A stretch of 64,000 nt of DNA, taken from contig JAGLLT010000017.1 of NCBI GenBank assembly GCA_023140385.1, positions 1,754 through 65,753 of the forward strand, written 5' to 3'. Below the pieces are notes generated by a model. That model was not told where the DNA came from and did not search any database. It worked only from the letters and a program-made list of their open reading frames with translations. This DNA comes from Candidatus Omnitrophota bacterium (GTDB taxonomy: Bacteria > Omnitrophota > Gorgyraeia > JAGLLT01). Both the position numbers and the translations under genes were made by a program. Below are positions 10,754 to 59,538 of the stretch, one piece after another (the stretch's first letter is position 1; the number at the start of each line of letters is the position of its first letter).

Positions 10754-10766
10754 AACGCCTATAACC

Positions 10767-12722: not shown

Positions 12723-12723
12723 A

Positions 12724-13314: not shown

Positions 13315-13336
13315 TTTAAAACCCCCAATTTTTTCC

Positions 13337-24677: not shown

Positions 24678-25019
24678 TTTACTCTGTAAGCCACAGAGCA
24701 TCTTTCCTACTTCATTACACATATTACTTACTTTATTAGTTACAACCTCGTCAAGATAATTTAAATCTTTACTTAATATAATATGATATTTCGTTTCTTC
24801 CAGAGAAGCATCGGCTAAATTTAAAAAATGAGAATAATCTCGTTTACCTTTTCTTTTAAATCCTTCAACAATATTAGTAGGAATAGAACTTGCCGAACGT
24901 CTTAGTTGAGAAGTAAGGCCAAATTTTTCTTCGTTTGGAAAACTTCTTGTAATCTTATATATCTCCAACACTAACATATGCGCCTTCTGCCAAACCTTTA
25001 GATCCTTAAAAGTTTTCAT
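24666..25019 (-). CDS. Four-helix-bundle protein (23S rRNA IVS protein / Avd-like family), intact
   Basis: 117 aa. LKVWQKAHMLVLEIYKITRSFP…GLTSQLRRSASSIPTNIVEG… is the canonical family signature. Confidence 0.8.
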   Translation of the reverse strand: MKTFKDLKVWQKAHMLVLEIYKITRSFPNEEKFGLTSQLRRSASSIPTNIVEGFKRKGKRDYSHFLNLADASLEETKYHIILSKDLNYLDEVVTNKVSNMCNEVGKMLCGLQSKLNP

Positions 25020-45005: not shown

Positions 45006-46157
45006 TTAATCTCCTACCGGTTTTTTAGCACCTTTTATGATTTTTTCCGCCGTTTTTTGGCCTATACCCGGAATTTTAGTTAAATCCTCTACGCCGGCTT
45101 TGGCAAGCATCTCTCTCGATTTCATACCCGCCTCAATCAAAAGAGCGGCCGTTTTCGTGCCTATACCCTTAATCTTATCGATTGCACCGGCCTCCTCTTT
45201 GTCAGCCGCCGCCTTCGATACCTCGCTGGCGCTCTTTATATTTATGCTTACCCCTGTCAACTTTGAGGCTAATCTGACATTTTGGCCCCGCTTACCGATA
45301 GCCAGTGATAACTGGTCGTCATTCACCAAAACCATGGCATTCCTGTTTTCCTCATCCATCTGTATTTCCATAATTTCAGCCGGTGACATCGCGTTTTTAA
45401 TATACTCCTTAATTTGACTGCTGTATTTAACAATATCAACCTTCTCACCTTCAAGCTCGGCGACAACACTCTTAACGCGTGAACCCCGCACTCCGACGCA
45501 GGCACCCTGACTGTCCACCCTGTCATCATGAGAGTAAACGGCCAGCTTAGTCCTCTCGCCGGCTTCTCTGGCAATTGATTTAATCTCCACGATATGTTCA
45601 TAGATCTCCGGCACCTCCAGCTCAAAGAGCTGCCTGACAAACTCAGGGCTTGTCCTTGAAAGTATTATGCGCGGGCCTTTACTCGACTGCTCCACAGCCT
45701 CAACGTAAGCCCTTATCCTCTGACCCTGACTATAATTCTCCTTTGAGACCTGAAACTTTCTTAAGATAATCCCCTCTGCCTTGCCTAAGTTCACAATAAT
45801 TCCCTGGCGATCAAAACGGTAGATGGTCCCGCTTACAATTACGCCAATTTTATCCTTAAAGTCATTATATATGACGGTTCGCTCCGCTTCGCGTATCTTC
45901 TGGATGATAACCTGCTTGGCGGTTTGGGCGGCTATACGCCCAAACTCAGCTGATTCAATCTCCTTGCCTTCAGCGCAAATCTTAATCTCGCCCGTTTCCG
46001 GATCAAATTTAACAGACACATCCCCTTCTCTGCCGGGGATAGTCTTTTTAGCGGCAGACAAAAGAGCTGATTCTAAAGCCTCAATCAAGACATTTCTTTC
46101 TATGCCCTTTTCTCTTTCAATATTTTCTAATATTCCCAGCAACTCACTTTTCATCAT
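45006..46157 (-). CDS. nusA: Transcription termination/antitermination factor NusA
   Basis: N-terminal NusA domain, an S1 and 2xKH (GKRGQNVRLA). Located upstream of infB. Confidence 0.9.
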   Translation of the reverse strand: MMKSELLGILENIEREKGIERNVLIEALESALLSAAKKTIPGREGDVSVKFDPETGEIKICAEGKEIESAEFGRIAAQTAKQVIIQKIREAERTVIYNDFKDKIGVIVSGTIYRFDRQGIIVNLGKAEGIILRKFQVSKENYSQGQRIRAYVEAVEQSSKGPRIILSRTSPEFVRQLFELEVPEIYEHIVEIKSIAREAGERTKLAVYSHDDRVDSQGACVGVRGSRVKSVVAELEGEKVDIVKYSSQIKEYIKNAMSPAEIMEIQMDEENRNAMVLVNDDQLSLAIGKRGQNVRLASKLTGVSINIKSASEVSKAAADKEEAGAIDKIKGIGTKTAALLIEAGMKSREMLAKAGVEDLTKIPGIGQKTAEKIIKGAKKPVGD

Positions 46158-46630
46158 TGCTTCCTTTTCATATCAAGTTTAATCACTGCCTTCTTTATCC
46201 GGCTTAAACTTAACTCTTTTCTCTCGCCGGCTATATCCAGCAGAATATTATCACCTTCAATTTCTACGATTTTGCCGCATGTCTCTTCAATTGTCGTGCC
46301 GCAAGCCGCATAGGTTACCTCAACAACCTCACCTCTTACCCTCTCAAAGTCCCTTTTTGTAACCAGCGGCCTGTCAAGGCCGGGAGACGCGGCCTCCAGG
46401 ACAAAGCGGCCGGGGACTATCTCGCTCTCTTCTAAGACTTCTCCCATCCGCCTGTTAAATTCAGCGCACTCCTCAAGGGTTATTCCGCCAGGCTTATCAA
46501 GCAAAAAAAGGACAACCAGGCCTTTTTGTTTGCGGGAGCCCAACTCTATCTCAACCAGCTCTAAACCCCTTGCCTTCAATAAGCCGGAGGCGGCATTCTT
46601 TAACTTTTCCTTAAGCTCTTCTTTGTTCAT
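46154..46630 (-). CDS. rimP: Ribosome maturation factor RimP
   Basis: The start was chosen at ATG 46630 (MNKEELKEKLKNAASGLLKARGLELVEIEL…), the typical RimP N-terminus. The longer ORF to 46723 adds a non-conserved leader. Confidence 0.7.
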   Translation of the reverse strand: MNKEELKEKLKNAASGLLKARGLELVEIELGSRKQKGLVVLFLLDKPGGITLEECAEFNRRMGEVLEESEIVPGRFVLEAASPGLDRPLVTKRDFERVRGEVVEVTYAACGTTIEETCGKIVEIEGDNILLDIAGERKELSLSRIKKAVIKLDMKRKQ

Positions 46631-46757
46631 TTTTTCATTCAATAAAAAAAGTGGGGTAAACCCACTTCCATTAAAAACATTAAACTTGTTTAAAATTATA
46701 CTAAAAGGCCGTCTTGTTGTCAAGGATTTTTTGGCGCCGTAAACGTAAAAATACGCA

Positions 46758-46834: not shown

Positions 46835-47440
46835 TCAAAAACGGCACTTAAGCCCGCCGCCAAGCATCCACATATCACCATCTAGATCAACTTGAGCATG
46901 CGTACCAAAAGCATCTACGTGGCCGGTTGTATCGCTCCACATAAAACTACCTTCTAAATTTAGAGCTACATTCTCTGTAAAGTAGTAGTCGAGGCCAGCG
47001 CCCAGTTTAAGGGCAAACTCACTATCCATATCAACTGAAATACCGGCATTTGTTAAAGCTGAGCTCTCATCATAGTCCCAGAAACAAACACCCAGCCCCA
47101 AAATGCCGTAAGGAACTACCGCGCATTCATCCAATTCAATCGGATTCTTAACAATTAGAGTCGCTAAAAGAGGCACTACGCTAACATCTCCGTAATCCAC
47201 CCCGTCATACTCCTCATTCCAACCGGCATAACCGCATTCACCGCCTATAGCAATGTATCGGGTCAGGTCATAAGCAATGTTTCCTCCGACATAGCAGGTA
47301 CTGTCAGCGGCACTTTCTTCAGGGTCAACATAAGAAACATTCACTCCCAGCGTCCACTTTTGCGCCTCATCATAAGCAAAAGCAAGACTGCTGGTCATTA
47401 TAAAAGCAACTAACAAAATTAAGCATACAAACTTTTTCAT
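46835..47440 (-). CDS. Outer-membrane beta-barrel protein (OmpW/OmpA-beta-barrel-like)
   Basis: Signal peptide, alternating amphipathic strands, and a C-terminal …GGGLKCRF aromatic. Confidence 0.6.
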   Translation of the reverse strand: MKKFVCLILLVAFIMTSSLAFAYDEAQKWTLGVNVSYVDPEESAADSTCYVGGNIAYDLTRYIAIGGECGYAGWNEEYDGVDYGDVSVVPLLATLIVKNPIELDECAVVPYGILGLGVCFWDYDESSALTNAGISVDMDSEFALKLGAGLDYYFTENVALNLEGSFMWSDTTGHVDAFGTHAQVDLDGDMWMLGGGLKCRF

Positions 47441-47625
47441 CTTTAACTCCTTATTTCATGTTTAATACTTTTCACTATCCGTTAACTTATTATCTCCCCA
47501 CATCACCTCTCTTTCTTTTTCTTAGTAATTAAGAAAGCGTTACAGTTAAGTTGTTATATAAATATTTGAAAAAGTGATTGTATCATACAAAGAGACAAAT
47601 ATCAAGCACGTTTTTTTAGCTCTTA

Positions 47626-48843
47626 TTAACTTATCAATTCAGCTATATTAAATACCGGTAAGTAAAGAGCTATCACAATCCCTCCGATAATAACTCCTAA
47701 AACAACAATTATTACCGGTTCAATCAGAGAGGTTAAGCCATCTACGATAGCCGTAACTTCAGCATCATAAAAATCAGAAACCTTGAGCAGCATCTCTTCA
47801 AGGGAACCTGTTTGCTCACCGACAGCTACCATTTTAACGACCAGAGGTGGAAATATGCCGCTGCTTGCCAGAGGTTGGGCTATGCTCTCGCCCCCCCTAA
47901 CATTTTCCAGAACCTTGAAAACTACTTTTTCAATTACTTTATTGCCGCTTGTTTTGGCAACAATATCCAGGGAGGTCAAAATAGAAACGCCGCTTTTTGT
48001 CAGAGTGCTTAATGTCCTTGAAAATCTGGAAATGGAAACCTTCCTTATTAGTTTACCAGCTATAGGGAGCCTTAAGAGCATCCCATCAATGAAAAGCCCG
48101 CCGGGTTCTGTCTTGGAAAACATAAAAATCCCCGCGATTACAGCCGCGATTCCAAGTACAAACGCGAGAAGCCATTTAGTCACCAAATTGCTTAACAACA
48201 ACAAAAACTGTGTCGGCCCGGGCAAGTTCGCGCCAAAGCCGGAGTATATTTCCGCGAAAGACGGAACCACCTGAACCAGCATAAATACCGTAATACCCGC
48301 CGCCGTAAGCGTAATAACAACAGGATATACTAAGGCAGCCTTAACCTTCTTCTGCAGTTTACTTGTCTCTTCCAGATAAGAAGCCATACGTTGTAAAATA
48401 TCATCCAGCATACCTGAGGCCTCACCGGCTGAAATCATGTTAACGAAAAGCGTTGAGAAGGCTCTGGGATACCTGGATAGAGCTTCCGATAGGCTGCTGC
48501 CGCCCTCAACTGCTTCTTTCACTTTACTAATCAAAGATTTAAACGGCCTTTTTTCTGACTGTTCAACAAGTATCTCAAGGCCCTGAATTAAAGGAAGGCC
48601 GGCACTTACCATAGTAGCCAACTGCCTCGAAAAAACAGCCAGGTCATCCGTTTTTATTTTGATTGAGGAAGATGGCGGGTTAAAGCTGAAAGCAAAGGGG
48701 GATTTTTTATTTTTACTTATGGAAAGGATGAAGCACTTTCTCTCTTTTAAGATATTTACAGCAGCTTCCTCGGTGGGAGCGCTCAAGATACTGGTTGACA
48801 CCGTTCCATTTTTCTTTTTAATGGTGTATTTAAATTCGGGCAT
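47626..48843 (-). CDS. pilC: Type II secretion / type IV pilus platform protein (GspF/PilC family)
   Basis: Two T2SSF repeats and 3 TM segments over 405 aa. Last gene of the operon. Confidence 0.85.
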   Translation of the reverse strand: MPEFKYTIKKKNGTVSTSILSAPTEEAAVNILKERKCFILSISKNKKSPFAFSFNPPSSSIKIKTDDLAVFSRQLATMVSAGLPLIQGLEILVEQSEKRPFKSLISKVKEAVEGGSSLSEALSRYPRAFSTLFVNMISAGEASGMLDDILQRMASYLEETSKLQKKVKAALVYPVVITLTAAGITVFMLVQVVPSFAEIYSGFGANLPGPTQFLLLLSNLVTKWLLAFVLGIAAVIAGIFMFSKTEPGGLFIDGMLLRLPIAGKLIRKVSISRFSRTLSTLTKSGVSILTSLDIVAKTSGNKVIEKVVFKVLENVRGGESIAQPLASSGIFPPLVVKMVAVGEQTGSLEEMLLKVSDFYDAEVTAIVDGLTSLIEPVIIVVLGVIIGGIVIALYLPVFNIAELIS

Positions 48844-48851
48844 AGGTTATT

Positions 48852-50546
48852 TTACTCCGAAGTTATCCTCAAGACCTCTTCTATTGTCGTCTGCCCCGCG
48901 AGAAACTTTTTAACGGCGTTCTCCCACAGCGTCTTCATACCTTTTGAAACAGCATATTCCTTAATCCTATCGCTTGACTCTTTAGCCAGAATCATATTTT
49001 TAATCTCTTCATCAATCTCCATAACCTCAATCGTCCCCATTCTTCCCATATAACCTGTGTTATTGCACTGCTTACATCCTTGAGCCTGATAGCCGGTAAT
49101 TTCTTCCTTCACGTTAATGCCTAATTTTTTTAGAACTTCCATAGGCACCCTATATTCACGGCGACAAGCGGAACAAACCCTTCTGCAAAGCCTTTGAGCA
49201 ACAACTAAAATAAGACTTGAAGCAATCAAAAAGGGCTCTATGCCCATATCAACCAGCCGCGTTATGGCGCCGGCAGCATCATTTGTATGAAGCGTACTGA
49301 AAATCAATAAGCCTGTAAGTGACGACTTAATGGCAATATCAGCCGTCTCCGAATCTCTAATCTCACCAACCATAATTACGTCTGGACTTTGTCTTAATAT
49401 TGATCTGAGCCCTCCGGCGAAAGTCAAACCTATTTCCGGTTTAACCTGAACCTGAGTTATCCCCTCAAGCTGATACTCTACAGGATCTTCGATAGTCATT
49501 AAACTCACCTTAGGCTTGTTAAGCTGATTTAAGATTGAATAGAGGGTCGTTGATTTACCTGAGCCGGTGGGCCCTGTAACCAAAATCATACCATAGGGCT
49601 TAAGGACAGCTCTCTTAAAGGCTTCAAGAGGCTCTGACAAAAAACCAAGCTTTTCCAGGCCGACACTCAAATTGGACTTATCAAGAGCTCTCATAACAAT
49701 TTTTTCACCATGAGCTATGGGCAGGCAGGAAACCCTAAAGTCGATTTCTTTGTCTTTAAATTTTACCTTAAACCTCCCATCCTGCGGCAGTCTTCTTTCG
49801 GTAATATCCAGATTGGACATTATTTTCAGGCGGGCAATAAGGGCATTCTGATACTTTTTCGGTATTTCAAAGGCCTCCTGAAGCTCCCCGTCAACACGGT
49901 AACGGATACGCAAAATATTTAGATAAGGCTCTAAGTGTATATCACTGGCCCTTTGCTTCAAGCCTTCGTCTATAATACGGCCAACCATCCTGATAACCGG
50001 AACCTTCTCATCAACCTGCATCATCTGAACCTCACCCTTTACATGCTCCAACTCCGATTCCTGTCCAGACCCCGCCTCATTTAGCATATCCATCACTCCG
50101 GCGTTAACACCTCCATAGGCTATCCTAATTGCCTTTTTAACCTCATCCGGAGTGCTGATAATTGGTTTAATTGTCATACTGGTTAAACTTTTAATATCAT
50201 CAAGGGCGAATATATTTAAAGGATCGGCCATAGCAATGGTCAGGGTATTGCCAATTTTTGAAAGAGGTATTACAAGATAATGACTGGCAATCTGTTCGGG
50301 AATAATCTTTAAAACTTCAAAGTCAATCTTATATTTGGAGAGCTTTATAATAGGTAGATTCAGTTGGCTCGCCAGACAGCTCATCAATTGCTCTTCACTG
50401 ACCGCCCCCTGCTTAACAAGAATCTTGCTTAGCAAACCTCCTTCATTCTTCTGAATTTGAATTGCCTTATCCAGAGCGTCCTTTGAAATGAACTGGCTAT
50501 CAAGTAACGTTTTTTTAATTTTTTCTTCAAGGCTAATTTTAGCCAT
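48852..50546 (-). CDS. pilB: MshE/PilB-family assembly ATPase with an N-terminal MshEN (c-di-GMP-binding) domain
   Basis: The two MshEN motifs are LLDSQFISKDALDKAIQIQ and LSKILVKQGAVSEEQLMSCLASQ. Walker A is LVTGPTGSGKSTTLYS and the tetracysteine is CSAC…CKQC. Confidence 0.85.
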   Translation of the reverse strand: MAKISLEEKIKKTLLDSQFISKDALDKAIQIQKNEGGLLSKILVKQGAVSEEQLMSCLASQLNLPIIKLSKYKIDFEVLKIIPEQIASHYLVIPLSKIGNTLTIAMADPLNIFALDDIKSLTSMTIKPIISTPDEVKKAIRIAYGGVNAGVMDMLNEAGSGQESELEHVKGEVQMMQVDEKVPVIRMVGRIIDEGLKQRASDIHLEPYLNILRIRYRVDGELQEAFEIPKKYQNALIARLKIMSNLDITERRLPQDGRFKVKFKDKEIDFRVSCLPIAHGEKIVMRALDKSNLSVGLEKLGFLSEPLEAFKRAVLKPYGMILVTGPTGSGKSTTLYSILNQLNKPKVSLMTIEDPVEYQLEGITQVQVKPEIGLTFAGGLRSILRQSPDVIMVGEIRDSETADIAIKSSLTGLLIFSTLHTNDAAGAITRLVDMGIEPFLIASSLILVVAQRLCRRVCSACRREYRVPMEVLKKLGINVKEEITGYQAQGCKQCNNTGYMGRMGTIEVMEIDEEIKNMILAKESSDRIKEYAVSKGMKTLWENAVKKFLAGQTTIEEVLRITSE

Positions 50547-50576
50547 CTTATTTCTCTCTATGAAAAAAGTAAAAAG

Positions 50577-52298
50577 CTAAACTACTGTAACCCTTAATAT
50601 TTCCTCTAAGGCGGTAATTCCCTTGGCGGCTTTTATTAAGCCGTTTTCTCTAATGGTATTCATGCCCTCAGAGCCCGCCTGCTTTAATAAGCTGGCTTCT
50701 GATTCCCTCTTAATAATTATATCTTTGATCGCGCTTGACAAAAGAATGGCCTCGCTAATTACCACTCTTCCCTTGTAGCCCGTATTCTGACAGCTGGGAC
50801 AACCTTTTCCTTTATAAAAACTTTTTATCTCGGCGTTAATTTTCTTTTCAATTTTATCCAACCCAAGATTCTTCCTCAAATTATTATTTATTTCATAGGC
50901 CTCTTTGCAATTAGAACAAACTCTTCTAACTAATCTTTGAGCTATAAAAAGAAGACAGGATGAGGTAATTAAAAAAGGTTCTACGCCCATATCGACCATT
51001 CTGATTACAGAACCCGCGGCCGAGGTTGTGTGCAGGGTACTCAAAACAAGGTGTCCGGTTAAAGCGGCTTTGATAGCCACGTCAACGGTCTCAAAGTCCC
51101 TGATCTCGCCTACCATAATTATATCCGGATCCTGCCTTAATATTGACCTTAAGGCGGAAGCGAAGGTCAAGCCGGCCTTCGGCAGGCATGTTACTTGATT
51201 TACCCCCTCTAATTCATATTCAACCGGATCTTCTACAGTAACTATATTTTTGGCCGGGGAATTAACAAGCTGTAAAACTGAGTAAAGTGAGGTGGTTTTG
51301 CCGCAGCCGGTAGGCCCGCAGACCAAGATCATGCCGTGGGGGCGCCTGGCACTTTCCTTTAATCTTTCTAATACCTGCTCCTCAAAGCCAAGTTTATTAA
51401 TATCTAAAGTTGACGACGACTTATCCAAAACTCTCAGGGCAATCTTTTCTCCAAAGCTTGAAGGTAAAACAGACACCCGATAATCAACCTCTCTTTTCAG
51501 CACCCGGACTTTAAACCTTCCGTCTTGGGGAAGACGATGCTCGGCTATATTGAGATTTGACATTACCTTTATGCGAGAAATAATAGCGCTATGAAGAGCC
51601 TTGGGGACCGTCGGACTTTCCTGCAGGATTCCGTCCACTCTATACCTTACCGTTGTTTTCTTTTCCTGCGGCTCAATTAAAACATCGCTTGCCGCGCGCC
51701 TAACAGCTTCGGTAAGTATCAGGTTGGTTAATCTAATAACCGGCTTCTCGCCCATCATCTTCAGCAAGGTATCAGCATCCTGAACCTTGCCGTCTGAGCT
51801 CGCCTTAACGTCCTTCAAAAGGCTTTCATCGCCCTCCCTCAGGAGACTTTCAAGCTTCCCGCCCTGGCCGTAATACCTATCAAGGGCACTAAGGATTTCC
51901 TCTTCACTACTTATAATGGGATGAATAACAAATCTGGTTAAAGCCTTTAAATCATCAATGGCAAAAATATTTAAAGGATCGGACATAGCAATAGTTAAAG
52001 TATTGCTTATTTTTGAAACTGCTATTAAGACATACCGCCTGGCCAGCTCTTCCGGAATTAATTTAACAATCTCCTTGTCTATCCTGAGCTTGTCGAGAGA
52101 AATGAGTGGAATGCCCGAACTCTCACTTAAAGCCGCCATCAGGTCATCGTTTTTAACAAACTTTAAGGAAATCAATATATCTCTCAACTTCCCCTGTTTT
52201 TGTTTTTGTATCTTGAGTGCTTCCTCAAGCTGCTGGCGGGTAAGCAGTTTATTCTCTAATAAAATCTTAATAACTTCTTCTTTTAAGTTTTTCGCCAT
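50577..52298 (-). CDS. Second MshE/PilB-family ATPase with an N-terminal MshEN domain
   Basis: The two MshEN motifs are LLENKLLTRQQLEEALKIQ and LRDILISLKFVKNDDLMAALSES. Walker A is LVCGPTGCGKTTSLYS and the tetracysteine is CSNC…CPSC. Confidence 0.85.
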   Translation of the reverse strand: MAKNLKEEVIKILLENKLLTRQQLEEALKIQKQKQGKLRDILISLKFVKNDDLMAALSESSGIPLISLDKLRIDKEIVKLIPEELARRYVLIAVSKISNTLTIAMSDPLNIFAIDDLKALTRFVIHPIISSEEEILSALDRYYGQGGKLESLLREGDESLLKDVKASSDGKVQDADTLLKMMGEKPVIRLTNLILTEAVRRAASDVLIEPQEKKTTVRYRVDGILQESPTVPKALHSAIISRIKVMSNLNIAEHRLPQDGRFKVRVLKREVDYRVSVLPSSFGEKIALRVLDKSSSTLDINKLGFEEQVLERLKESARRPHGMILVCGPTGCGKTTSLYSVLQLVNSPAKNIVTVEDPVEYELEGVNQVTCLPKAGLTFASALRSILRQDPDIIMVGEIRDFETVDVAIKAALTGHLVLSTLHTTSAAGSVIRMVDMGVEPFLITSSCLLFIAQRLVRRVCSNCKEAYEINNNLRKNLGLDKIEKKINAEIKSFYKGKGCPSCQNTGYKGRVVISEAILLSSAIKDIIIKRESEASLLKQAGSEGMNTIRENGLIKAAKGITALEEILRVTVV

Positions 52299-52307
52299 CT
52301 ATAGATT

Positions 52308-52832
52308 TTACTCCTCGGGGGCGGTGCCGCCCTGACTGTTTTCTTCATCCACTTGTCGCGGAGCATTGCTAAAGTTAAGTTTAGCAATGTCCTCTTCCCG
52401 CGAAACGATACTTCCGTACAAGCGGTTTATAGCGTCCTTTATATCACTTGCCGTACTGACAAAGGCCGTAACCTTACAGTTCGTTATATACTCAAGGTCT
52501 TTTATGGCAAAATCATTTAGCGGATCTGACATAACTACAGTCAAAACATTCCCAATTTTGTCAATGGGAATAAGAAAATATTGCCTGGCAACGTTCTCCG
52601 GCACAAGCTTTATTGCCTCAATATTAATGTCATAATTACTCAAAGGCAGATAAGGAAAACCGTACTGATCAGCCAGGGACATAACCAAATTCTCTTCACT
52701 AATAAAATTCAGCTCAATTAAAATCTGCCCTAAAAGGCCGCCCTTTTCTTTTTGAGACTTCAGGGCTTCATCTAACTGAACCTGCGTAATTATCTTTTTC
52801 TCAATGAGAAGCTGTCCCAGCTGTTTTTTCAT
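52308..52832 (-). CDS. Stand-alone MshEN (T2SSE_N) domain protein, putative c-di-GMP receptor
   Basis: 174 aa. The two motifs are LGQLLIEKKIITQVQLDEALKSQ and LGQILIELNFISEENLVMSLADQ. There is no ATPase domain. Confidence 0.7.
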   Translation of the reverse strand: MKKQLGQLLIEKKIITQVQLDEALKSQKEKGGLLGQILIELNFISEENLVMSLADQYGFPYLPLSNYDINIEAIKLVPENVARQYFLIPIDKIGNVLTVVMSDPLNDFAIKDLEYITNCKVTAFVSTASDIKDAINRLYGSIVSREEDIAKLNFSNAPRQVDEENSQGGTAPEE

Positions 52833-52853
52833 CTCTGCGTCCTTTTCAAATGG

Positions 52854-55800
52854 TTATTCTTTTAACTTTCTCTTGACGCTTTCTATCGCTTTACTAACCT
52901 TTCTTCTTACTTCATCATTACTGTATTGAGAATAAAGTTTCAGGGTTTCAAGGCAGCCCCTGTCTCCTATAAGCCCCATAACCTCTATAATATTCATAAT
53001 AACTTCTACATCTCTGGTGGCCGATAATTCACGCCTTAACTCTTCAAGGGACTTACTTCCGAATTTTGCGAGAATTTCAGCTATGTATCGCCTGTTTAAA
53101 TAAGCATCATAGGGATCAATCCTTTTGTTAGGTTTAGATAAAAGATTGACAAAATAATCTACCGTCCCTTCGCCCGCTTCATCAATCAGCGAAGCAATGG
53201 CTTCAGCGTCTGTTCTTCTTACCTTTACCTTAAACACTCCGGCAAGAGCCTTTACGTTTTCCTTTTTAGCAATCTGAGCCAAAACTTTGCTTAAAACATT
53301 CTTCCGCTCTTCGCCGATTTTCTCACCGGGCGCAGTAATTTCCTTAATAAACCGGGTTATGGAAACAGCCAAATCAAATTCCTTCTTATTAATAAAGATG
53401 CCGATAAGCCTGTCTAAAACGAGACTTTCCGAGGTAAAAACTGAAAGATCCTTTTCACCGCCTATCACATCCACAAGACACCTGCTTATAAAACGCAGGC
53501 AATCTATAGCATCATTGGAGCTTAAAATATCTACTATGCTCTGAAGATTAGCCGCTACATATAGACGAACCTGACAATTTTCAGACTCAAAATTTTTAAA
53601 TATTTTACTCAGGGCTTCATTAACTACCTCTTCTTTGTTGTCCAAAAGCAGTTCATAGAAGACCTCCTTCACGCTTTCTAAAAGTTCCTGATCCAAGAAG
53701 GACTCCGCGGACAAAGACTTTATTTTAATAAGCTTATCAGAATAAGAGAGGTTGCGCCATAAATCAGGTTTTAAAAAACTAAGAAACTGCTCATTGGAAA
53801 TGCCGCAAGCGGAAAAACTCTGACTCATTGATTCAAGAATACCAACCCTTCTTTTCTTATCCGGCAAGAACCTTTTTATGTAATCTTTTATGTCGGTAAA
53901 ATTAACTTTACCCTGCTTATATCTCTCACATTCCTGCGCGAAAAAAGTTTCTATTTTGCTATCAGGAAGTTCGCTAAAGGCTTTAGCCATTTCATCGGAG
54001 GTAATTCCCACATTTTTAAGATTTTTCTGTTTTAAAATCTGAGAGCGCAGCTCAGGCTGTAGATTAAGTACAAACTGTAGAAGGTTTTCCTTATACCGCT
54101 TTTGTTTTTCAGAATTTTCCTTTAAAACCTCACTTTTCATCTTTTTTAAACTTTGCTTTACGATATCAGCTTTTTCGTTTATGTTCATGTTCTGAAAATC
54201 AAAATCACTCTCAGCGGCACCAGGGCCTTCCGGGCCTTTAGAAAAAATCCCGGCTAAATAATCCGGGTTCCGGCCTAAAACATCAAGCATAGAACTTCTT
54301 GAATCAGTTGAAGCTTCCGGTCTACTAAGCATATAATTTATTAGCATTACTTCATTAATCTTGCTTCTTTTTTCCTGCGGCCGGCCAAGCTTCTTTCTTA
54401 ATATCTTCTCGTAATGAACCATGATAAGCTTAATGCCCGCTACGTTATTTTGCTTAAGTATAGCCTGCAGGCCGCCCAAATCATCTATCTCTGACGTTTT
54501 TTTTGAAAGAGCCGTGAGAAAAACGTCAAGCTCTCCTTCTTTCACGTCTTTCTCAAAGAAAAAAGACTGTATTCTATACTTTTTTAATAAAGAAGCGAGG
54601 CTGCCGATTACTGCGCTTCTAACATCCTTAGCCCTCAGCTCTCCCCCATTTACTAGAAGATAACCCTCAACATCAGAAAAAGAAATCACCTCATATCCCT
54701 TAAAAAGCTCTCCTAAATAATTATATAACTCCCTCACCGAATCAACCCTGACCTTGCTCCCCTTGGGATATAATCCATAATTTACAATCCCGGCCCTTAA
54801 AGAAACAATAACCTTAATGATAAGCCTATAGTCATCTTTTTTAAGCGGCTCTACAGCAAGAGGCAACTCCTCCTCCTCTTCTTCTTTTAGGCCGGCCAAC
54901 TCTCTTGATAAGACTTCCTGCAAATACTGGTTAGCTTCATCCGAATTAAAACTTCTTAAGGCTTCATCTTGGGCAATCTTTTCATAATCGGATGCCTTTT
55001 TCGCGTCTTTGGCCTTTTTAAAATGATAGGCAAGAAGGTTAGCCGCGGCCTGCGGATTGCTACTGCTTGACGCCTCCGCGATCTGAGCGAATTTTTCATG
55101 AAGTTTATTGCGCTCATTTTCCTGAACTTCGTCATAAAGCAGCTCCCAGAGCAGTTTATTTCTAAAACTAAATATCTCCTGCCCCCCTGTTTCGCGGGAA
55201 TCAATAAACATCTTCTGCCTGGACCGCTCTATCATCTCGCCGATGTAGCCGGGACTTTTACCAGTCATCTTTTCCAGAGCTTCAAGGCTGAACTCTTGCC
55301 CCAAAACAGCCGCGTTAGACAAAAAATACTTGGTCTCTTCATCCATATGCTTAAGCTTATCCTGTATAATTTCCTTGATACCTAAAGATATATCATCGTC
55401 TTTGATTTCCTTTTTACGCCATTTTTCGTCTTTAAAGTAAATTGAACCGTTTTCGATAAGTTTTCTCAAGGACTCTTCTATAAAATACGGATTACCTTCT
55501 GTTCTTGAGTAAAATAACTGATTTAACTTGTCATCAAATTCCAAGTCGCCAAAAATAGAGTTAATCATCTTTTTGGTTTCCTCGGAGCTAAGCGGCTTAA
55601 GTTCTACGCAAAGACTTTTTTGATTTCGCTGTAACTGTTCATATAACTGCCGTAGTATTATATTCTCATCAAACCTTCTTATTAATTCCGAGTAGCGAAA
55701 AGCGCATACAATACAGATTTTTTCATTTACCTCATTGCTTAACAAATAATTAATAAGAGAAATCGTGGCCAAGTCGACCCACTGAAAATTGTCAAAAGTT

Positions 55801-56864
55801 ATAAATAAAGGCTTTTGCTGAGATAACTTTATCATCAGTTCCGCCAACGCCTTAAAAAGATGGGATCTGAAGTTTTTTTCGTCAAGTTTTACCTTTTCAA
55901 TCCGGCGGCTTGAAAACTTTTGAAGGGCCGGCTCCAACTCAATCAGGCAAGAAAGCTCTATCTCAGACAAGCTGTCAATTATCCGCTTGGCTCCATCCCC
56001 AAGCGACTTCATAACCCCCTCAAGGTTGGCCGATAAGACCTGATATGGTTGGGAAGATATGACTTCAGTGCAGCGGGCCGCTAATGAAAGACTTTCTTTT
56101 GACAGAGCATAACTCGCGGCTTCTAATTGAAGCTTGCTTTTTCCCAAGCCTGCTTCAGCCTGTATAAGAACCGTCCTGGCTGTATTATTCCCAAAACTAT
56201 CGTCTATTACCTCTTTAATTCTCTTTAAGTTCTTTTCTTTTCCGATAATCTCAAAAGACAAAAGTTCAAATACTTTATCTTTATTCAATATATCTTCGGG
56301 TACTTGCGTAAATATGGAAACTCTGTTTCTACCGGTTCTTTTAGATAAATATAAGGCTTCATCCGCGCGATAAATAAGTTTTTCGGCGACTTGCGCGTCA
56401 CGCGGATACAAGGCAAGGCCCAGACTTAAGGTTAAGTTTATATCGCGCTGGCCGCCTTCTCCCGCAAAAACATACTGTGAAATCCTGCCTATCAGCCTCC
56501 CGGAGATCTTTAACGCGTCGCCTTCAGCCGTCATAGGCAGTATCACAATAAATTCATCACCGGCATATCTTATTATCTCATCATACTCACGAAAACTCTC
56601 CCTCAGTAAATCAGCCACCTCCATCAACACCTTATCTCCTCTCAGATGCCCATAGGTATCATTAATCTCTTTAAACTTATCTATATCTATCATAAATAGC
56701 GATAAAGGGTACTGTTCTCTGTCGGCCTTTTCTATATTTTCTCCAAGGCATTTATTTAGATAACGCCTGTTATGAAGATTAGTCAGATCATCCCGATAGA
56801 TTAGTTCCTGTACTGCCTCTTTGTCCTCTATATAAAGTTGTTTTTTCCTTCGATCTCTCTGCAT
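52854..56864 (-). CDS. 1336-aa multidomain protein: N-terminal GGDEF (AGDEF variant), AAA+/STAND-like NTPase, a long middle region and C-terminal HEAT repeats
   Basis: The GGDEF domain has DLTNLHNRRYL…RYAGDEF. Walker A is TVLIQAEAGLGKSKL, with a Walker B-like FITFDNFQWVD. The C-terminus has HEAT/PBS-lyase-like repeats (…NDEVRRKVSKAIESV). Confidence 0.7.
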   Translation of the reverse strand: MQRDRRKKQLYIEDKEAVQELIYRDDLTNLHNRRYLNKCLGENIEKADREQYPLSLFMIDIDKFKEINDTYGHLRGDKVLMEVADLLRESFREYDEIIRYAGDEFIVILPMTAEGDALKISGRLIGRISQYVFAGEGGQRDINLTLSLGLALYPRDAQVAEKLIYRADEALYLSKRTGRNRVSIFTQVPEDILNKDKVFELLSFEIIGKEKNLKRIKEVIDDSFGNNTARTVLIQAEAGLGKSKLQLEAASYALSKESLSLAARCTEVISSQPYQVLSANLEGVMKSLGDGAKRIIDSLSEIELSCLIELEPALQKFSSRRIEKVKLDEKNFRSHLFKALAELMIKLSQQKPLFITFDNFQWVDLATISLINYLLSNEVNEKICIVCAFRYSELIRRFDENIILRQLYEQLQRNQKSLCVELKPLSSEETKKMINSIFGDLEFDDKLNQLFYSRTEGNPYFIEESLRKLIENGSIYFKDEKWRKKEIKDDDISLGIKEIIQDKLKHMDEETKYFLSNAAVLGQEFSLEALEKMTGKSPGYIGEMIERSRQKMFIDSRETGGQEIFSFRNKLLWELLYDEVQENERNKLHEKFAQIAEASSSSNPQAAANLLAYHFKKAKDAKKASDYEKIAQDEALRSFNSDEANQYLQEVLSRELAGLKEEEEEELPLAVEPLKKDDYRLIIKVIVSLRAGIVNYGLYPKGSKVRVDSVRELYNYLGELFKGYEVISFSDVEGYLLVNGGELRAKDVRSAVIGSLASLLKKYRIQSFFFEKDVKEGELDVFLTALSKKTSEIDDLGGLQAILKQNNVAGIKLIMVHYEKILRKKLGRPQEKRSKINEVMLINYMLSRPEASTDSRSSMLDVLGRNPDYLAGIFSKGPEGPGAAESDFDFQNMNINEKADIVKQSLKKMKSEVLKENSEKQKRYKENLLQFVLNLQPELRSQILKQKNLKNVGITSDEMAKAFSELPDSKIETFFAQECERYKQGKVNFTDIKDYIKRFLPDKKRRVGILESMSQSFSACGISNEQFLSFLKPDLWRNLSYSDKLIKIKSLSAESFLDQELLESVKEVFYELLLDNKEEVVNEALSKIFKNFESENCQVRLYVAANLQSIVDILSSNDAIDCLRFISRCLVDVIGGEKDLSVFTSESLVLDRLIGIFINKKEFDLAVSITRFIKEITAPGEKIGEERKNVLSKVLAQIAKKENVKALAGVFKVKVRRTDAEAIASLIDEAGEGTVDYFVNLLSKPNKRIDPYDAYLNRRYIAEILAKFGSKSLEELRRELSATRDVEVIMNIIEVMGLIGDRGCLETLKLYSQYSNDEVRRKVSKAIESVKRKLKE

Positions 56865-56879
56865 AACGCTTAGACACCT

Positions 56880-57953
56880 CTAAAGATCCTTTAACATCCT
56901 CTTTAAATCTTCTACTTCGTTTGTTCTTGATAAGGCAGATTCATAATCAATTCTTCCCAACTGACAAAGCTCTTTTAGGCTGTGATTCATCGCTTTCATC
57001 CCATCCTTCTGTGAAGTCTGTATTACGGAATATATCTGATGAATCTTTTGTTCCCTTATTAAACTCCTGACGGCAGGAGTTAAAACCAACAGTTCAAACG
57101 CCAAAACTCTACCGGAACCGCTGGCCCTAGGTATCAACTGCTGTGATATAACGGCGTTTAACACAAAAGAAAGCTGTACCCTTACCTGTTCCTGCTGGTG
57201 CTGAGGAAAAACGTCAATTATCCTGTTAATCGTTTGAGCGGAGTCCGAAGTATGAAGTGTTGCCAAAACCAGATGCCCTGTCTCGGCGGCGTTTAGAGCC
57301 AACTCTATGCTCACTAAATCTCTCATCTCACCGATTAATATAACATCTGGATCCTGACGGAGGACATGCTTGAGAGCCTGAGAAAAAGAATGGGTGTCGC
57401 GGCCTACTTCACGCTGATCAATAACCGCTTTTTTATTCGAGTATAAATACTCTATCGGATCCTCTATAGTTACAATATGAACCGGGCGATCATTATTAAT
57501 AAACTCTACCATGGCGGCTAAGGTGGTTGATTTTCCGCTTCCCGTCGCGCCGGTTATTAGCACCAGCCCTTTATTCTTCACGCACAATTCAGTCATAGTG
57601 TTGACCGGCAGGCCGCACCCCTCAAAAGACATAATTTTGGCCGGCAAGGCCCTGATAGCAACCCCGATTTTTCCTTTTTGATAAAACACATTGGCTCTAA
57701 AACGCGCTATCTTTTCTATGCCAAAGGACATGTCCAGCTCGAGATCCCTTTCAAGAGCCTTTTTTTGATCTTCGCTAAGAATACCGCTTAGCAGATTTTG
57801 TATCTCCTCACTGCTGAGACTCTCGTAATCACAGGGAATTAGCTTCTCGTCAACTCTAAAATGCGGAACAGAGTCAGATGATAAATGCAGGTCAGACGCC
57901 TTTTTCTCTACCATCAACAATAAAGCTTCCTTAAGAACAGTTAACCTGGTCAA
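56880..57953 (-). CDS. pilT: Type IV pilus retraction ATPase PilT
   Basis: ASDLHL N-terminus. Walker A is LITGATGSGKSTTLAAM, with AIRHVLRQDPDVILIGEMRD. The TTG start at 57953 has an AAGGAGGTG SD; the alternative ATG is at 57914. Confidence 0.85.
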   Translation of the reverse strand: MTRLTVLKEALLLMVEKKASDLHLSSDSVPHFRVDEKLIPCDYESLSSEEIQNLLSGILSEDQKKALERDLELDMSFGIEKIARFRANVFYQKGKIGVAIRALPAKIMSFEGCGLPVNTMTELCVKNKGLVLITGATGSGKSTTLAAMVEFINNDRPVHIVTIEDPIEYLYSNKKAVIDQREVGRDTHSFSQALKHVLRQDPDVILIGEMRDLVSIELALNAAETGHLVLATLHTSDSAQTINRIIDVFPQHQQEQVRVQLSFVLNAVISQQLIPRASGSGRVLAFELLVLTPAVRSLIREQKIHQIYSVIQTSQKDGMKAMNHSLKELCQLGRIDYESALSRTNEVEDLKRMLKDL

Positions 57954-58002
57954 AACACACCTCCTTATGGAAATTTAGCGTTAGGATAATAATAAATTAT
58001 TA

Positions 58003-59424
58003 TCAAGTATATACTTTATTGGCGTCTTGAGACCGCGCCCGATCCAACAGCTTCCGGGCCTTGATGACTAACTCCTCAGAGCTCATCCCGTCCAATGGAT
58101 TAGCCGTTACCGCCGCGCTTACGGTTATATTTTTCTCGGGCATTGACTCCTGATTTGCAAAGTCAAAATTCTCAATTTTCTCTCTGATTTTATCAGCTGT
58201 CATATGAGCTTCTTTTTTATTCTTCTCAGGAAGAATCAAAGCAAAAGCACACTGTTCAAACCTGCCCACCTTATCTATCCGCTCAACGTTTGCCTTTATG
58301 ATAGAGGCTATTTTTTTCAATATCTCATCCGAAACCTGCTTGCCAAATCTGTCCTGGCAAGCGTCAAAATTATCGACTTCCACTAAGATAAAAGAACACG
58401 GCCGCTGATATGTAATAGCTCTTTGAATCTCCTCATTTAAACGTTCTCTTAGATATTTTATATTATATAGCCCCGTCAACTCATCTCTTACTGAAAGCTC
58501 TTTGGTTTTATTCATAAGCAAGTTATTTTCTATAGCAATAGAAATCTGCTTACTAAAGACCTTCATCAGCTCCAGGTCATCACTCGCGAAACTAAAATCA
58601 TTTTTATTGTTACCGAGAATCATATCGCACTTAACCTCACCGTGAAGTACAACAGGAAAAACAATTATGTTATTTAAATTCAGGCTTTTTTTTAAGCTCT
58701 TTGTTGCACCATCAACTCTGTGCTTCTTATCCAAAACTAAGCTTTCCCGCTGCTTTGAAAGCCTGGCAAGAACACCTTCGGAAAAATCTTTTTCAAGGGC
58801 TTCCATTTCTTCGGGTTTAAGATTATTAGTAGCCTTTATCTTTACCCCGGCGCCTTCCGCCTCAAAAATTACCAAAAAGCTTTTCTCGCAGTCAACAACA
58901 TCAGGAAGTCTTTCGATTACAGTCTGCAATATTACGCTAAGATCTCCGGCGCCGGACATAATGCTGCTAACCTGAAAAAGAGTCGATAGGGCTGTCATTT
59001 TTTTATTGATGTCCAGATTAATGCTTCTTATCTGCTCCTCATAGCCCTTTAAAGTATCTACATTTTTATTTATTTTTGAAGCCATTGAGTTAATAGAAAT
59101 ACTTAAATCACCGATTTCATCCTCTCTGTTAGTCGGAATTTGCCCAAGATCATTGCCGTCTGTATAAAGTTTGAGTTTTTTAGAAATCTGAATAACAGGA
59201 TCAACGATGCTTTTAGCCACAAACAGGCCCAAAAGCGCTATAATGGTTGTTATTAAAACCAACAGGCTGGTGTCACCGATAATTATATCCTGCTCATACA
59301 CGTATTTATTTATAAGAACTCCACAGAGTAAAAGGGGCATAATTGACATAAGGCTAAAAGCTAAGATTAATTTATACTTCAGGCCCTTTGGCATTAAAGA
59401 TACCGCTTTAAATAACTTATACAT
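58003..59424 (-). CDS. Membrane signalling protein: 2 TM, HAMP, GAF and a degenerate GGDEF domain
   Basis: The GGDEF fold is RDELTGLYNIKYL…, but its signature is GRFEQCAF instead of GG(D/E)EF. Confidence 0.65.
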   Translation of the reverse strand: MYKLFKAVSLMPKGLKYKLILAFSLMSIMPLLLCGVLINKYVYEQDIIIGDTSLLVLITTIIALLGLFVAKSIVDPVIQISKKLKLYTDGNDLGQIPTNREDEIGDLSISINSMASKINKNVDTLKGYEEQIRSINLDINKKMTALSTLFQVSSIMSGAGDLSVILQTVIERLPDVVDCEKSFLVIFEAEGAGVKIKATNNLKPEEMEALEKDFSEGVLARLSKQRESLVLDKKHRVDGATKSLKKSLNLNNIIVFPVVLHGEVKCDMILGNNKNDFSFASDDLELMKVFSKQISIAIENNLLMNKTKELSVRDELTGLYNIKYLRERLNEEIQRAITYQRPCSFILVEVDNFDACQDRFGKQVSDEILKKIASIIKANVERIDKVGRFEQCAFALILPEKNKKEAHMTADKIREKIENFDFANQESMPEKNITVSAAVTANPLDGMSSEELVIKARKLLDRARSQDANKVYT

Positions 59425-59538
59425 TACAAGTCCCCTCCGATCAAAACAACATTTTTAAACTGAATTTAAAAACTTTAAATTATTTAAATACTTCACTTAA
59501 GTATACTATATAAAAAAAATTTAGTCAAGGTCGCCGGA

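Follow-up and report, generated by a model that had tools for sequence, protein, structure and literature searches.

How a pilus motor can be coupled to cyclic di-GMP (c-di-GMP) signaling in a locus that encodes no pilus, and which of its several candidate domains reads the second messenger, are the questions raised by a block of seven genes from an Omnitrophota bacterium. The seven open reading frames (ORFs) all lie on the minus strand at 47626-59424 of the window, by which we mean the entire 64-kb stretch of DNA analysed. They follow one another in the order HGG (a HAMP-GAF-GGDEF protein), PilT, a very large GGDEF protein (the giant), a stand-alone MshEN protein, the PilB paralogs PilBa and PilBb, and PilC, with intervening gaps of 49, 15, 21, 9, 30, and 8 bp (Table 1). 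An earlier note on this DNA had given exactly these coordinates, strand, order, and 8-49-bp gaps, and its domain calls were borne out by Pfam and NCBIfam HMM searches of each ORF. That c-di-GMP components are genetically coupled to a PilB/PilT/PilC motor, as it proposed, is clear. Its statement that pilin and PilMNOPQ genes are missing from the window also holds: no prepilin N-terminus of the G/FTLxE type occurs in the six frames of the 64 kb, the pilins and PilM/N/O/P/Q proteins of relatives gave zero matches as tblastn queries against the window, and a Pfam scan of its remaining ORFs of at least 100 aa yielded no pilin or secretin. The gap between rodA and HGG contains a promoter-like site (TTGACT-17-TATACT, 59528 to 59500), which is a weak hint only, because the number of such sites in the region (30, versus 26.6 +/- 5.6 expected) is not above chance.

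Table 1. Features of the seven-gene block and its flanks, in window coordinates.
Feature	Position	Strand	Basis or remark
Beta-barrel porin-family gene	46835..47440	-	OMP_b-brl Pfam; MCK5306049.1 'porin family protein'
Synteny breakpoint	47441..47625	.	blastn vs L090; relatives carry a pilin gene here
PilC platform protein, 405 aa	47626..48843	-	two T2SSF repeats (Pfam)
PilBb, PilB paralog, 564 aa	48852..50546	-	MshEN + T2SSE (about 1e-135)
PilBa, PilB paralog, 573 aa	50577..52298	-	MshEN + T2SSE (about 1e-135)
Stand-alone MshEN, 174 aa, predicted c-di-GMP receptor	52308..52832	-	Pfam MshEN only, 2.7e-20
53-residue double c-di-GMP motif of stand-alone MshEN, aa 4-56	52665..52823	-	
Giant, 1336 aa: GGDEF (AGDEF), STAND-type NTPase (AAA_16), alpha/beta domain, ARM/HEAT solenoid	52854..56864	-	
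ARM/HEAT-like alpha-solenoid of giant, aa ~895-1336	52857..54182	-	structure model, Foldseek
Conserved alpha/beta domain of giant, aa ~676-815	54420..54839	-	
AAA_16 (STAND) NTPase of giant, aa 206-378	55731..56249	-	Pfam
GGDEF domain of giant, aa 23-181	56322..56798	-	RYAGDEF, RxxD (R92-D95), DxD, ND
PilT-type retraction ATPase, 357 aa	56880..57953	-	Pfam T2SSE only; TIGR01420
HGG, membrane-anchored HAMP-GAF + catalytically dead GGDEF, 473 aa	58003..59424	-	Pfam, hydropathy
Intergenic gap, rodA to first block gene (HGG)	59425..59538	-	114 bp

Comparison with other genomes places the block within a larger cluster. The cassette, located downstream of mreBCD-mrdA-rodA, recurs in six related Omnitrophota loci, where pilin genes and PilM follow it directly, and PilN-O-P and a secretin are present in all five loci that extend that far. 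Three of these relatives (L001, L087, and L003) match the block gene for gene in their order and continue with pilin(s) and PilM-N-O-P-secretin; their giants are 52%, 54%, and 30% identical to that of the window, respectively, and their PilT orthologs 59-77%. The cassette is permuted in L084, which additionally carries REC-GGDEF and REC-HD-GYP genes. The view of the locus as a self-contained module of non-textbook arrangement therefore does not survive, and the alternative that the earlier note itself had said would count against that view, a pilB-pilT-pilC locus with adjacent pilins, is correct for the lineage but not for this strain. The inspection covered seven cassettes and nine loci that carry the giant: two related cassettes (L123 and L124) lack the giant, and in four other genomes it is located away from pilus genes. 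For the pilus cassette the giant cyclase is optional, an insert rather than its 'dedicated GGDEF scaffold', and a GGDEF-family gene of some kind accompanies the cassette in all seven loci.

The motor genes are readily assigned. PilT scores 464 bits against the NCBIfam PilT/PilU model TIGR01420 (cut-off 319), and the best NCBIfam matches of PilC, whose orthologs are 49-69% identical, are type IV pilus PilC models. The two paralogs score 646 and 640 bits with the PilB model TIGR02538, versus 585 and 599 for GspE, and Geobacter and Myxococcus PilB are their top PDB sequence matches. All 14 PilB sequences compared have the Walker A motif, Asp box, GEIRD, His box, and CxxC...CxxC; judged by sequence, PilBa and PilBb are both PilB-type ATPases with intact catalytic motifs, and the zinc motif of PilBa is intact as well. 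Orthologs of each are 48-90% identical across seven loci while the paralogs share only 41-53%, indicating that the duplication is ancient.

The three MshEN domains differ in how well they preserve the ligand contacts. Failure of these domains to match MshEN models had been named beforehand as grounds for abandoning the earlier interpretation; all three match, and the PilB N-domains score 44.8 and 46.1 bits against NF053729 (cut-off 38). [quoted passage not shown] The helical scaffold is kept, but both paralogs have lost the third-position glycine from both repeats: where the consensus reads RLG / RLG / ..Q, the N-domain of PilBa reads EVI / KLR / ..S, and the triads of PilBb are KIK / LLS. PilBa lacks the second glutamine, which the window's PilBb retains (Q61). 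Across the families, G11, G40, and Q61 are found in 0, 13, and 0 of 106 PilBa sequences and in 0, 6, and 8 of 15 PilBb sequences. Through the backbone amide and through side chains, the G11 and Q61 positions form hydrogen bonds with c-di-GMP (PMC5013675). It is therefore improbable that all three domains are c-di-GMP receptors, with the PilBs binding directly as Vibrio MshE does and the stand-alone protein acting as a third receptor or a buffer. Beyond the shared HMM match, that proposal can draw on the retention of L25, L29, L39, L54, L58, and Q32 in both PilB families, on the arginine that opens motif I in 62 of 106 PilBa sequences, and on Q61 of the window's PilBb. However, the HMM matches of both PilBs begin at model positions 5-6, past the RLG triad, G11 is missing from 121 of 121 PilB N-termini, and the non-binder XpsE shows the same kinds of change (G11V/G40L/Q61V; PMC5013675). 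In PilF, a glycine-to-alanine change by itself lowers c-di-GMP binding 10-30 fold (PMC12002112). The PilB N-domains, having passed the HMM cut-off, could bind c-di-GMP weakly or by another mode.

The stand-alone protein, which the earlier note had rightly singled out as a third MshEN domain on its own gene, matches NF053729 with 63.8 bits, the match spanning all 53 positions of the motif. The NCBIfam NfrB MshEN region matches it as well, and its PDB sequence matches are the N-domains of PilF (the top match, E 5.9e-41), PilB, and MshE. Its double motif consists of QLGQLLIEKKIITQVQLDEALKSQ, the spacer KEKGG, and LLGQILIELNFISEENLVMSLADQ; the extended consensus (R/K/L)LGxx..Q (PMC11731258) served as the reference. 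Among 121 family members, 50-90% identical overall, G11, G40, and Q61 are invariant, Q32 is present in 120, and motif II opens with leucine in all. The turn glycines G18 and G47 are replaced by K and N in the window's protein. The first residue of motif I stacks on guanine; it is Q or T, not R, K, or L, in 108 of the 121 sequences. The high-affinity binder PilF GSPII-B (KD 6 nM) carries KLG and LLG, without arginine, and binding at 2 nM is seen with its K167L variant (PMC11731258). When the corresponding motif II residue was changed back to serine in a PilF construct, binding was abolished, and a perfect MshEN consensus does not guarantee it (PMC12002112).

The protein might instead be no nucleotide receptor but an N1 domain that has become detached and serves as an adaptor or decoy at the site where the PilBs dock on PilM/PilC, with the GGDEF proteins signaling elsewhere. 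The opening Q or T lies beyond the tested R/K/L set, PilF GSPII-A is a near-consensus domain and yet a non-binder, and the distribution of the giant, lacking from some cassettes and elsewhere in other genomes, would fit such a role. We nevertheless consider it unlikely: the contact positions that vary freely in the neighboring PilB N-domains are kept in the stand-alone protein, and such constancy would be difficult to account for if it bound no ligand. The constant company of a GGDEF-family gene also speaks against it. Together, the residue patterns suggest that the reader of c-di-GMP is the small, separate MshEN protein rather than either motor ATPase. PilBa starts 9 bp past the stop of the MshEN gene in the window; in three relatives there is an overlap of 1-8 nt between these genes.

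The locus contains, as had been proposed, one probably active and one degenerate GGDEF domain. The former belongs to the giant (MCK5306054.1, annotated 'diguanylate cyclase'; Pfam GGDEF 1.4e-44, AAA_16 3.6e-14). RYAGDEF is invariant across 20 giant homologs, the DxD and ND motifs are invariant or nearly so, the Walker A GxGK is invariant, and the RxxD site is retained in at least 90% of the aligned sequences. An AGDEF site can be active, as in VCA0965 (PMC3974145), and AGDEF domains can also be inactive, as is reported for NbdA; that of the giant is probably active. The NTPase domain has the Walker A sequence AEAGLGKS and the Walker B sequence FITFDNF, and its residues G239, G241, K242, and D358 are invariant in the homologs. 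In the additional alpha/beta domain, L698-Y699-P700 is invariant and N739-G740 nearly so; structure comparison found no match to this domain. The Pfam HEAT_2 match of the C-terminal half is weak (23 bits, below the 27.7 cut-off), but many homologs have HEAT_2 in their precomputed Pfam annotation, and the HEAT assignment is supported by the structure model (pLDDT 80), which has designed armadillo proteins, importin-beta, and SF3B1 as its best Foldseek PDB matches. The degenerate domain is that of HGG (Pfam HAMP E 1.1e-5, GAF_2 1.7e-8, GGDEF 1.6e-30), which has hydrophobic segments at about aa 18-38 and 53-72 with a loop of about 14 aa between them. In this protein EQCAF takes the place of the GGDEF signature, and the substrate-binding ND pair has not been kept. 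All seven HGG orthologs have a degenerate motif, and six of the seven lack the RxxD inhibitory site.

We propose, with a probability of about 0.65 and on the strength of sequence comparison, that the block is the cytoplasmic motor and regulator half of a type IVa pilus cluster typical of Omnitrophota, in which c-di-GMP is read by the stand-alone MshEN. On the PilC platform, PilBa and PilBb would drive extension of the pilus, acting as alternative motors or together in a mixed hexamer, and PilT would retract it. The giant would synthesise c-di-GMP, its STAND architecture comprising an effector, an NTPase switch, and a repeat sensor, such that NTP- and ligand-driven oligomerisation could pair its AGDEF domains into the required dimer while the RxxD site would limit the product by feedback. 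The PilB N-domains, having lost the glycine and glutamine contacts, would not read the messenger. The stand-alone MshEN, with its invariant contacts and probable translational coupling to PilBa, would do so and, in its ligand-bound form, would gate extension in trans, via PilBa/PilBb or their PilM/PilC docking site; this action on PilB we purely infer. HGG is predicted neither to synthesise c-di-GMP nor to bind it at an RxxD site and would most likely relay a membrane or GAF-sensed signal through protein contact.

This arrangement resembles several known systems in part. As in Vibrio MshE, a domain of the same fold and of the 53-residue double motif family couples the second messenger to the extension motor of a type IV pilus. 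In MshE, however, receptor and ATPase form one polypeptide, whereas here the domains fused to the ATPases have lost the contact residues and the intact motif is on a separate 174-aa protein; moreover, the locus lacks msh genes, its ATPases are two ancient PilB-type paralogs, and PilT is encoded within the operon. Thermus thermophilus PilF likewise has several MshEN-type domains per motor (three N-terminal GSPII/MshEN domains, of which A is a non-binder and B and C bind; PMC11731258, PMC12002112), part degenerate and part binding, the latter being a prediction here. Its motif II opens with LLG, without arginine, exactly as in the stand-alone MshEN, but its motif I opens with K rather than Q or T and its domains all reside in one polypeptide, whereas in the present locus the domain that is the candidate for binding has a gene of its own, upstream of PilBa. 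In the Xanthomonas FimX-PilZ-PilB system c-di-GMP also reaches PilB in trans via separate receptors, one of which has degenerate GGDEF and EAL domains (PMC8389850). In contrast, the window encodes no PilZ or EAL domain, the predicted trans receptor is an MshEN, and the degenerate GGDEF protein HGG lacks the RxxD site. E. coli NfrB-DgcJ similarly pairs an MshEN receptor genetically with a specific diguanylate cyclase (PMC8669469), but the output of NfrB is a glycosyltransferase, not a pilus motor, and the cyclase of the present locus is a STAND-type protein of 1336 aa. Other STAND-type cyclase proteins share the sequence of effector, AAA_16 NTPase, and helical repeats (e.g., class III adenylate cyclase-AAA_16-TPR), and such proteins (P0072, P0106, and P0118) are among the distant matches of the giant; the latter differs in its GGDEF effector, its extra conserved alpha/beta domain, and the position of its gene inside a pilus operon.

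In this strain the motor half is severed from the pilin and secretin genes at the pilC stop. Positions 1-5286 of L090, a relative with 91% DNA identity, match 52907-47623 of the window (blastn), and the similarity ends at the pilC stop codon. A porin gene, which is outside the pilus system, fills the place of the pilin genes, and the same junction of pilC, porin, and rimP-nusA-infB occurs in L125 and L126, assemblies from two different samples, indicating a real, strain-specific rearrangement. The absence of pilin and PilMNOPQ genes from 64 kb and the breakpoint exactly at the pilC stop might suggest a decaying remnant whose structural genes were lost and whose motor genes are becoming pseudogenes or being re-used, but this is very improbable given seven intact ORFs, four comparable genes identical in length to those of L090 without indels, their dN/dS of 0.09-0.15, which indicates purifying selection and argues that the motor genes still work, and a probable homolog in the same genome of a gene from the pilin-pilM interval. 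That gene in L090, between pilin and pilM, encodes an ABC ATPase, and a protein at least 90% identical to it, MCK5306964.1, is encoded on a 118-kb contig. Its accession lies 914 away from that of the window's PilC, MCK5306050.1, and this numbering suggests that the pilus structural genes are located elsewhere in the same genome.

The seven ORFs occupy 47626-59424 on the minus strand, with intergenic gaps of 49, 15, 21, 9, 30 and 8 bp, in the order that an earlier note made from the sequence had given them, and scans with Pfam and NCBIfam models returned for every ORF the domains which that note had assigned. The locus represents a system of a known type, the c-di-GMP-regulated type IV pilus, and the finding is real; what appears to be new, judged from residue conservation, is a detached and strongly conserved MshEN protein beside PilB N-terminal domains that look ligand-blind, together with an inserted cyclase of the STAND type. 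The block lies between mreB (partial)-mreC-mreD-PBP2-rodA upstream and a beta-barrel porin gene followed by rimP-nusA-infB-trpS downstream. Promoter and terminator sites were not more numerous than in shuffled sequence, and operon boundaries therefore could not be drawn from that scan. The top NCBIfam matches of PilC are PilC models, at scores under their equivalog cut-offs. The proteins of the window are deposited at NCBI as MCK5306021-056, encoded on a 99-kb contig of a Candidatus Omnitrophota/Omnitrophica MAG; the 90% cluster of the GGDEF-NTPase giant is represented by a 313-aa fragment, and the exact window giant is missing from the homolog listing.

Genes of the seven-gene block in the window
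Gene	Position	Strand	Domains or family
HGG	58003-59424	-	HAMP-GAF-GGDEF (Pfam)
PilT	56880-57953	-	PilT/PilU family, TIGR01420 464 bits (cut-off 319)
Giant, 1336 aa	52854-56864	-	GGDEF, AAA_16, weak HEAT_2 (Pfam)
Stand-alone MshEN, 174 aa	52308-52832	-	MshEN domain alone (Pfam)
PilBa	50577-52298	-	MshEN and T2SSE (Pfam)
PilBb	48852-50546	-	MshEN and T2SSE (Pfam)
PilC	47626-48843	-	two T2SSF repeats (Pfam)

The published MshEN motif consists of two copies of RLGxx(L/V/I)(L/V/I)xxG(L/V/I)(L/V/I)xxxxLxxxLxxQ with a five-residue joiner, in which the glycine at position 3 hydrogen-bonds to guanine through its backbone, the glutamine at the end contacts ribose and phosphate, and the leucines build stacking clusters; the non-binder XpsE carries G11V, G40L and Q61V (PMC5013675). 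Work on Thermus thermophilus PilF broadened the first position to R/K/L, the KD being 6 nM for the GSPII-B domain, which has KLG and LLG, and 2 nM for the K167L variant of that domain (PMC11731258). In the same protein, replacing G by A weakens binding 10-30 fold, and binding is abolished when motif II opens with serine (PMC12002112). All three MshEN domains of the block match both the Pfam MshEN model and NF053729, the NCBIfam model of the 53-residue c-di-GMP motif (cut-off 38 bits): the stand-alone protein scores 63.8 bits over model positions 1-53, PilBa 44.8 bits over 5-52 and PilBb 46.1 bits over 6-53. The two PilB matches thus open at positions 5-6, past the RLG triad.

Residues of the MshEN domains (VcMshE numbering; 121 stand-alone sequences, 106 PilBa and 15 PilBb distinct N-termini)
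Position	Stand-alone MshEN	PilBa	PilBb
Motif I, window	QLG	EVI	KIK
Motif II, window	LLG	KLR	LLS
Ends of repeats, window	Q and Q (Q27, Q56)	Q and S	Q and Q
G11	121/121	0/106	0/15
G40	121/121	13/106	6/15
Q32	120/121	106/106	14/15
Q61	121/121	0/106	8/15, window copy included
Motif I first residue	Q 62, T 46, L 7, R 3	R 62/106	K 12, R 3
Motif II first residue	Leu 121/121	R 50, S 27, K 26	S 8, rest mixed

The c-di-GMP motif that had been read in both PilB paralogs holds at the level of the domain model, but G11 is found in 0 of 121 sequences over both PilB families, Q61 is missing throughout PilBa, and neither paralog has the (R/K/L)-L-G start of the two repeats. The stand-alone protein fits that start at both glycines and in motif II; its motif I Q lies outside R/K/L. 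At the level of individual residues, the stand-alone protein alone of the three domains looks like a c-di-GMP binder, and the PilB N-domains resemble XpsE. These 121 stand-alone proteins with invariant contacts, set against 121 fused domains that lack them, form a data set for refining the MshEN consensus, one that takes in Q or T at the first position. Stand-alone entries with a recorded source are publicly named 'hypothetical protein' or 'PilB', both of which are misleading.

PilBa and PilBb score 646 and 640 bits against TIGR02538 (PilB), just below its equivalog cut-off of 675.65 and above their GspE scores, and in both NCBIfam and PDB matches they lie about equally near the PilB proteins of Geobacter and Myxococcus and nearer to these than to GspE. 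The Walker A motif, Asp box, GEIRD motif, His box and four-cysteine zinc motif are present in 14/14 PilBa and PilBb sequences. The paralogs are 41-53% identical to one another and orthologs over seven loci 48-90%, which indicates that the PilB duplication predates the divergence of these lineages. The stop codon of the MshEN gene lies 9 bp ahead of PilBa in the window, and the two genes overlap by 1-8 nt in three related loci (L001, L003, L084), a spacing that fits co-translation of the two subunits. A reading of the block as a type II secretion system is ruled out by the presence of PilT, by PilB scores exceeding those of GspE, and by the PilM/N/O and pilin genes of relatives. Several of the PilB paralogs carry the misleading public name 'Flp pilus assembly complex ATPase component TadA'. 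A third T2SSE ATPase resembling PilB/GspE (MCK5306021.1, 522 aa) is encoded at 21444-23012 (-) by an orphan gene, flanked by genes for a CvpA-family and an RF-1-domain protein; in place of MshEN its N-terminus has a hydrophobic segment and a zinc-ribbon-like region, CxxC...CxxC.

The two GGDEF proteins of the block differ in their active sites, as the earlier note had proposed in describing one probably active and one degenerate domain. The RxxD allosteric inhibition site sits five residues ahead of the GGDEF active-site motif; in the giant it reads REYD, and at least 90% of 20 homologs retain R92 and D95. Among these homologs (25-53% identity) RYAGDEF, in which A replaces the first G of GG(D/E)EF, and the DxD and ND catalytic residues are invariant, and the K/R is conserved. 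An AGDEF site is active in Vibrio cholerae VCA0965 (PMC3974145); other AGDEF domains are inactive, and that of NbdA is called degenerate. The conserved residues suggest that the giant is probably an active, feedback-inhibitable cyclase. Its AAA_16 domain matches at 54 bits (Pfam cut-off 32.6), with G239, G241 and K242 of the Walker A GxGK and D358 invariant in the 20 homologs, and the C-terminal half is modelled as an ARM/HEAT solenoid (pLDDT 80); this succession of GGDEF, AAA_16 and helical repeats is the STAND layout.

HGG, by comparison, has two membrane segments with a very short outer loop, followed by HAMP, GAF and a GGDEF fold, and in 7/7 orthologs the GGDEF motif has degenerated (EQCAF in the window, where the ND pair is also lost, and DHSQF twice, SEYQF, GDDCF, SGDTF and SSNSL in the others). 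Since RxxD is missing in 6/7 orthologs as well, HGG is predicted neither to make c-di-GMP nor to bind it by the known GGDEF mode; a role as an RxxD-type receptor like PelD or PopA is ruled out by the same loss. A second c-di-GMP module lies at 8856-14605 (-) and encodes a dCache-HAMP protein, a 196-aa protein of no known family, a GAF histidine kinase, a single REC protein and a REC-GAF-GGDEF cyclase with a canonical GGEEF and the RxxD site RKVD.

Where homologs of the giant or the stand-alone MshEN have a recorded source, it is almost always a Candidatus Omnitrophota/Omnitrophica MAG, and gene neighbourhoods were read for nine giant- or MshEN-carrying loci. In L001, L087 and L003 (giants 52%, 54% and 30% identical) the genes run mreBCD-PBP2-rodA, HGG, PilT, giant, MshEN, PilBa, PilBb, PilC, pilin(s) and PilM-N-O-P-secretin. 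L084 (giant 26% identical) is permuted and has a second MshEN gene, REC-GGDEF and REC-HD-GYP genes, PilN-O-P-Q, PilM and a pilin. L123, which represents the very common 148-aa MshEN class, and the MshEN-carrying locus L124 have the cassette but lack the giant, with pilins and PilM coming next in L123 and pilins and PilMNOPQ in L124, and the other giant homologs (L085, L086, L088, L089) stand among unrelated genes. Prepilin genes directly follow pilC in L001, L003, L087, L123, L124 and L090, a 91%-identical relative, and lie nearby in L084; PilM-N-O-P and the PilQ secretin are present in L001, L003, L084, L087 and L124. Because the cassette of relatives continues into these genes, the unit at the level of the phylum is an ordinary type IVa pilus (T4aP) cluster. 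Three features of the motor part are unusual and constant, namely the dead-GGDEF sensor, the stand-alone MshEN gene and the tandem PilB genes, and the giant cyclase is an optional insert. Thus the tandem PilBs and in-operon GGDEF proteins, taken previously as a departure from the textbook arrangement, are normal for the phylum. A profile search of genome contigs with the giant alignment ran on generic GGDEF peptides and gave, among the matches listed, unrelated GGDEF proteins and zero Omnitrophota loci. In L084 (8000-10004 and 21859-22287) the REC-GGDEF and REC-HD-GYP genes lie between PilBb and the giant, so that both synthesis and breakdown of c-di-GMP are encoded in the operon, and a Y1 transposase separates PilM from the pilin.

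The window itself contains no pilin or secretin, as had been claimed: no prepilin-type N-terminus (methylation motif) occurs in six frames of the 64 kb, the pilins and PilM/N/O/P/Q of relatives gave zero tblastn matches, and Pfam found no pilin or PilMNOPQ domain in the remaining ORFs of at least 100 aa. L090 and L091, from a MAG of the same sample series, are 91.3% identical to the window in DNA over a stretch that runs from the MshEN gene to the stop codon of pilC at 47623, where similarity stops with zero bases beyond. Past pilC, the genes of L090 are a pilin, one unknown gene, two ABC transporter genes, another pilin-like gene and PilM. L094, a contig recovered from metagenomes with NusA as query (NusA 73% identical), shares its gene order with the window over >11 kb starting at rimP, but upstream of rimP its genes are unrelated to the window. 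This rules out a clean loss of pilA-pilQ from between pilC and rimP and argues for a rearrangement that joined two otherwise conserved blocks. Misassembly is ruled out, since the pilC-porin-rimP-nusA-infB junction recurs in scaffolds from two different samples (L125, L126). The porin gene as query found zero relatives in metagenome contigs. MshEN, PilBa, PilBb and PilC have equal lengths in the window and L090, with dN/dS of 0.09-0.15, indicating that the motor genes are being maintained. Furthermore, the ABC ATPase of the L090 pilin-pilM interval has a cluster mate at least 90% identical, MCK5306964.1, located on a contig of 118 kb; the accessions of this protein and of the window PilC differ by 914, and if, as this numbering suggests, the cluster mate belongs to the same MAG, the pilus structural genes have probably moved rather than been lost. 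The absence that had suggested a self-contained module is therefore a strain-level rearrangement and not a property of the system. The L090 insert (5832-8242), a 231-aa gene of no known family and the ABC pair (ATPase, ABC-2 permease), follows the major pilin and precedes the second pilin-like gene and PilM, and is unusual in a pilus cluster.

The block encodes a T4aP motor cassette, with two PilBs whose catalytic motifs are intact and one PilT, and the contact set for c-di-GMP, as far as residues tell, is intact in the stand-alone MshEN and missing from the fused domains. GGDEF domains act as pairs only; the giant would make c-di-GMP upon oligomerisation driven by its NTPase and repeat sensor. 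The stand-alone MshEN would then serve as the receptor and gate extension in trans, via PilBa/PilBb or their docking site on PilM/PilC, while PilT would retract the pilus and HGG may relay a membrane or GAF-sensed signal through protein contact. In MshE the receptor is fused to the ATPase, whereas here the putative receptor is a separate protein, and PilF has several fused MshEN-type domains, some of them non-binding. The FimX-PilZ-PilB system uses separate receptors that act in trans, but these are of other folds, and no PilZ or EAL domain was found by Pfam in any scanned window ORF. NfrB-DgcJ pairs an MshEN effector with its own cyclase. The MSHA locus has mshE with the mshA-Q set and no dedicated PilT; the block differs from it in lacking msh-type genes and in having PilB-type ATPases and PilT, with PilMNOPQ in relatives.

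The Omnitrophota form a widespread phylum whose members have very small cells and are mostly uncultivated, and their pili are the obvious structures to consider for attachment, motility or uptake of DNA. We put at about two in five the probability that, across this phylum, the detached, translationally coupled MshEN is the sole receptor through which two obligate ligand-blind PilBs are controlled in trans, with a STAND-type cyclase feeding it in some lineages. The locus bears on the question of whether a pilus motor can take c-di-GMP input via a separate MshEN subunit, and such a split-sensor design, if true, would be undescribed among pilus and type II secretion motors; the open-access literature searched held no description of the Omnitrophota arrangement or of a stand-alone MshEN beside PilB.

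Elsewhere in the window, two genes at 518-961 (-) and 24666-25019 (-) belong to the 23S_rRNA_IVP/bAvd-like four-helix-bundle family. An envelope-related group at 1182-4776 (-) and 5002-7515 (+) encodes a DUF481 outer-membrane protein, a weak Peptidase_C39-like protein, two PEP-CTERM proteins and an AsmA/DUF748 protein. The rimP ORF at 46154-46723 (-) has a TTG start and 189 aa; the gene is called as 158 aa in other assemblies, so the true start is probably an internal Met. Positions 46723-46695, at this ORF, match TTGACA-17-TATAAT perfectly.
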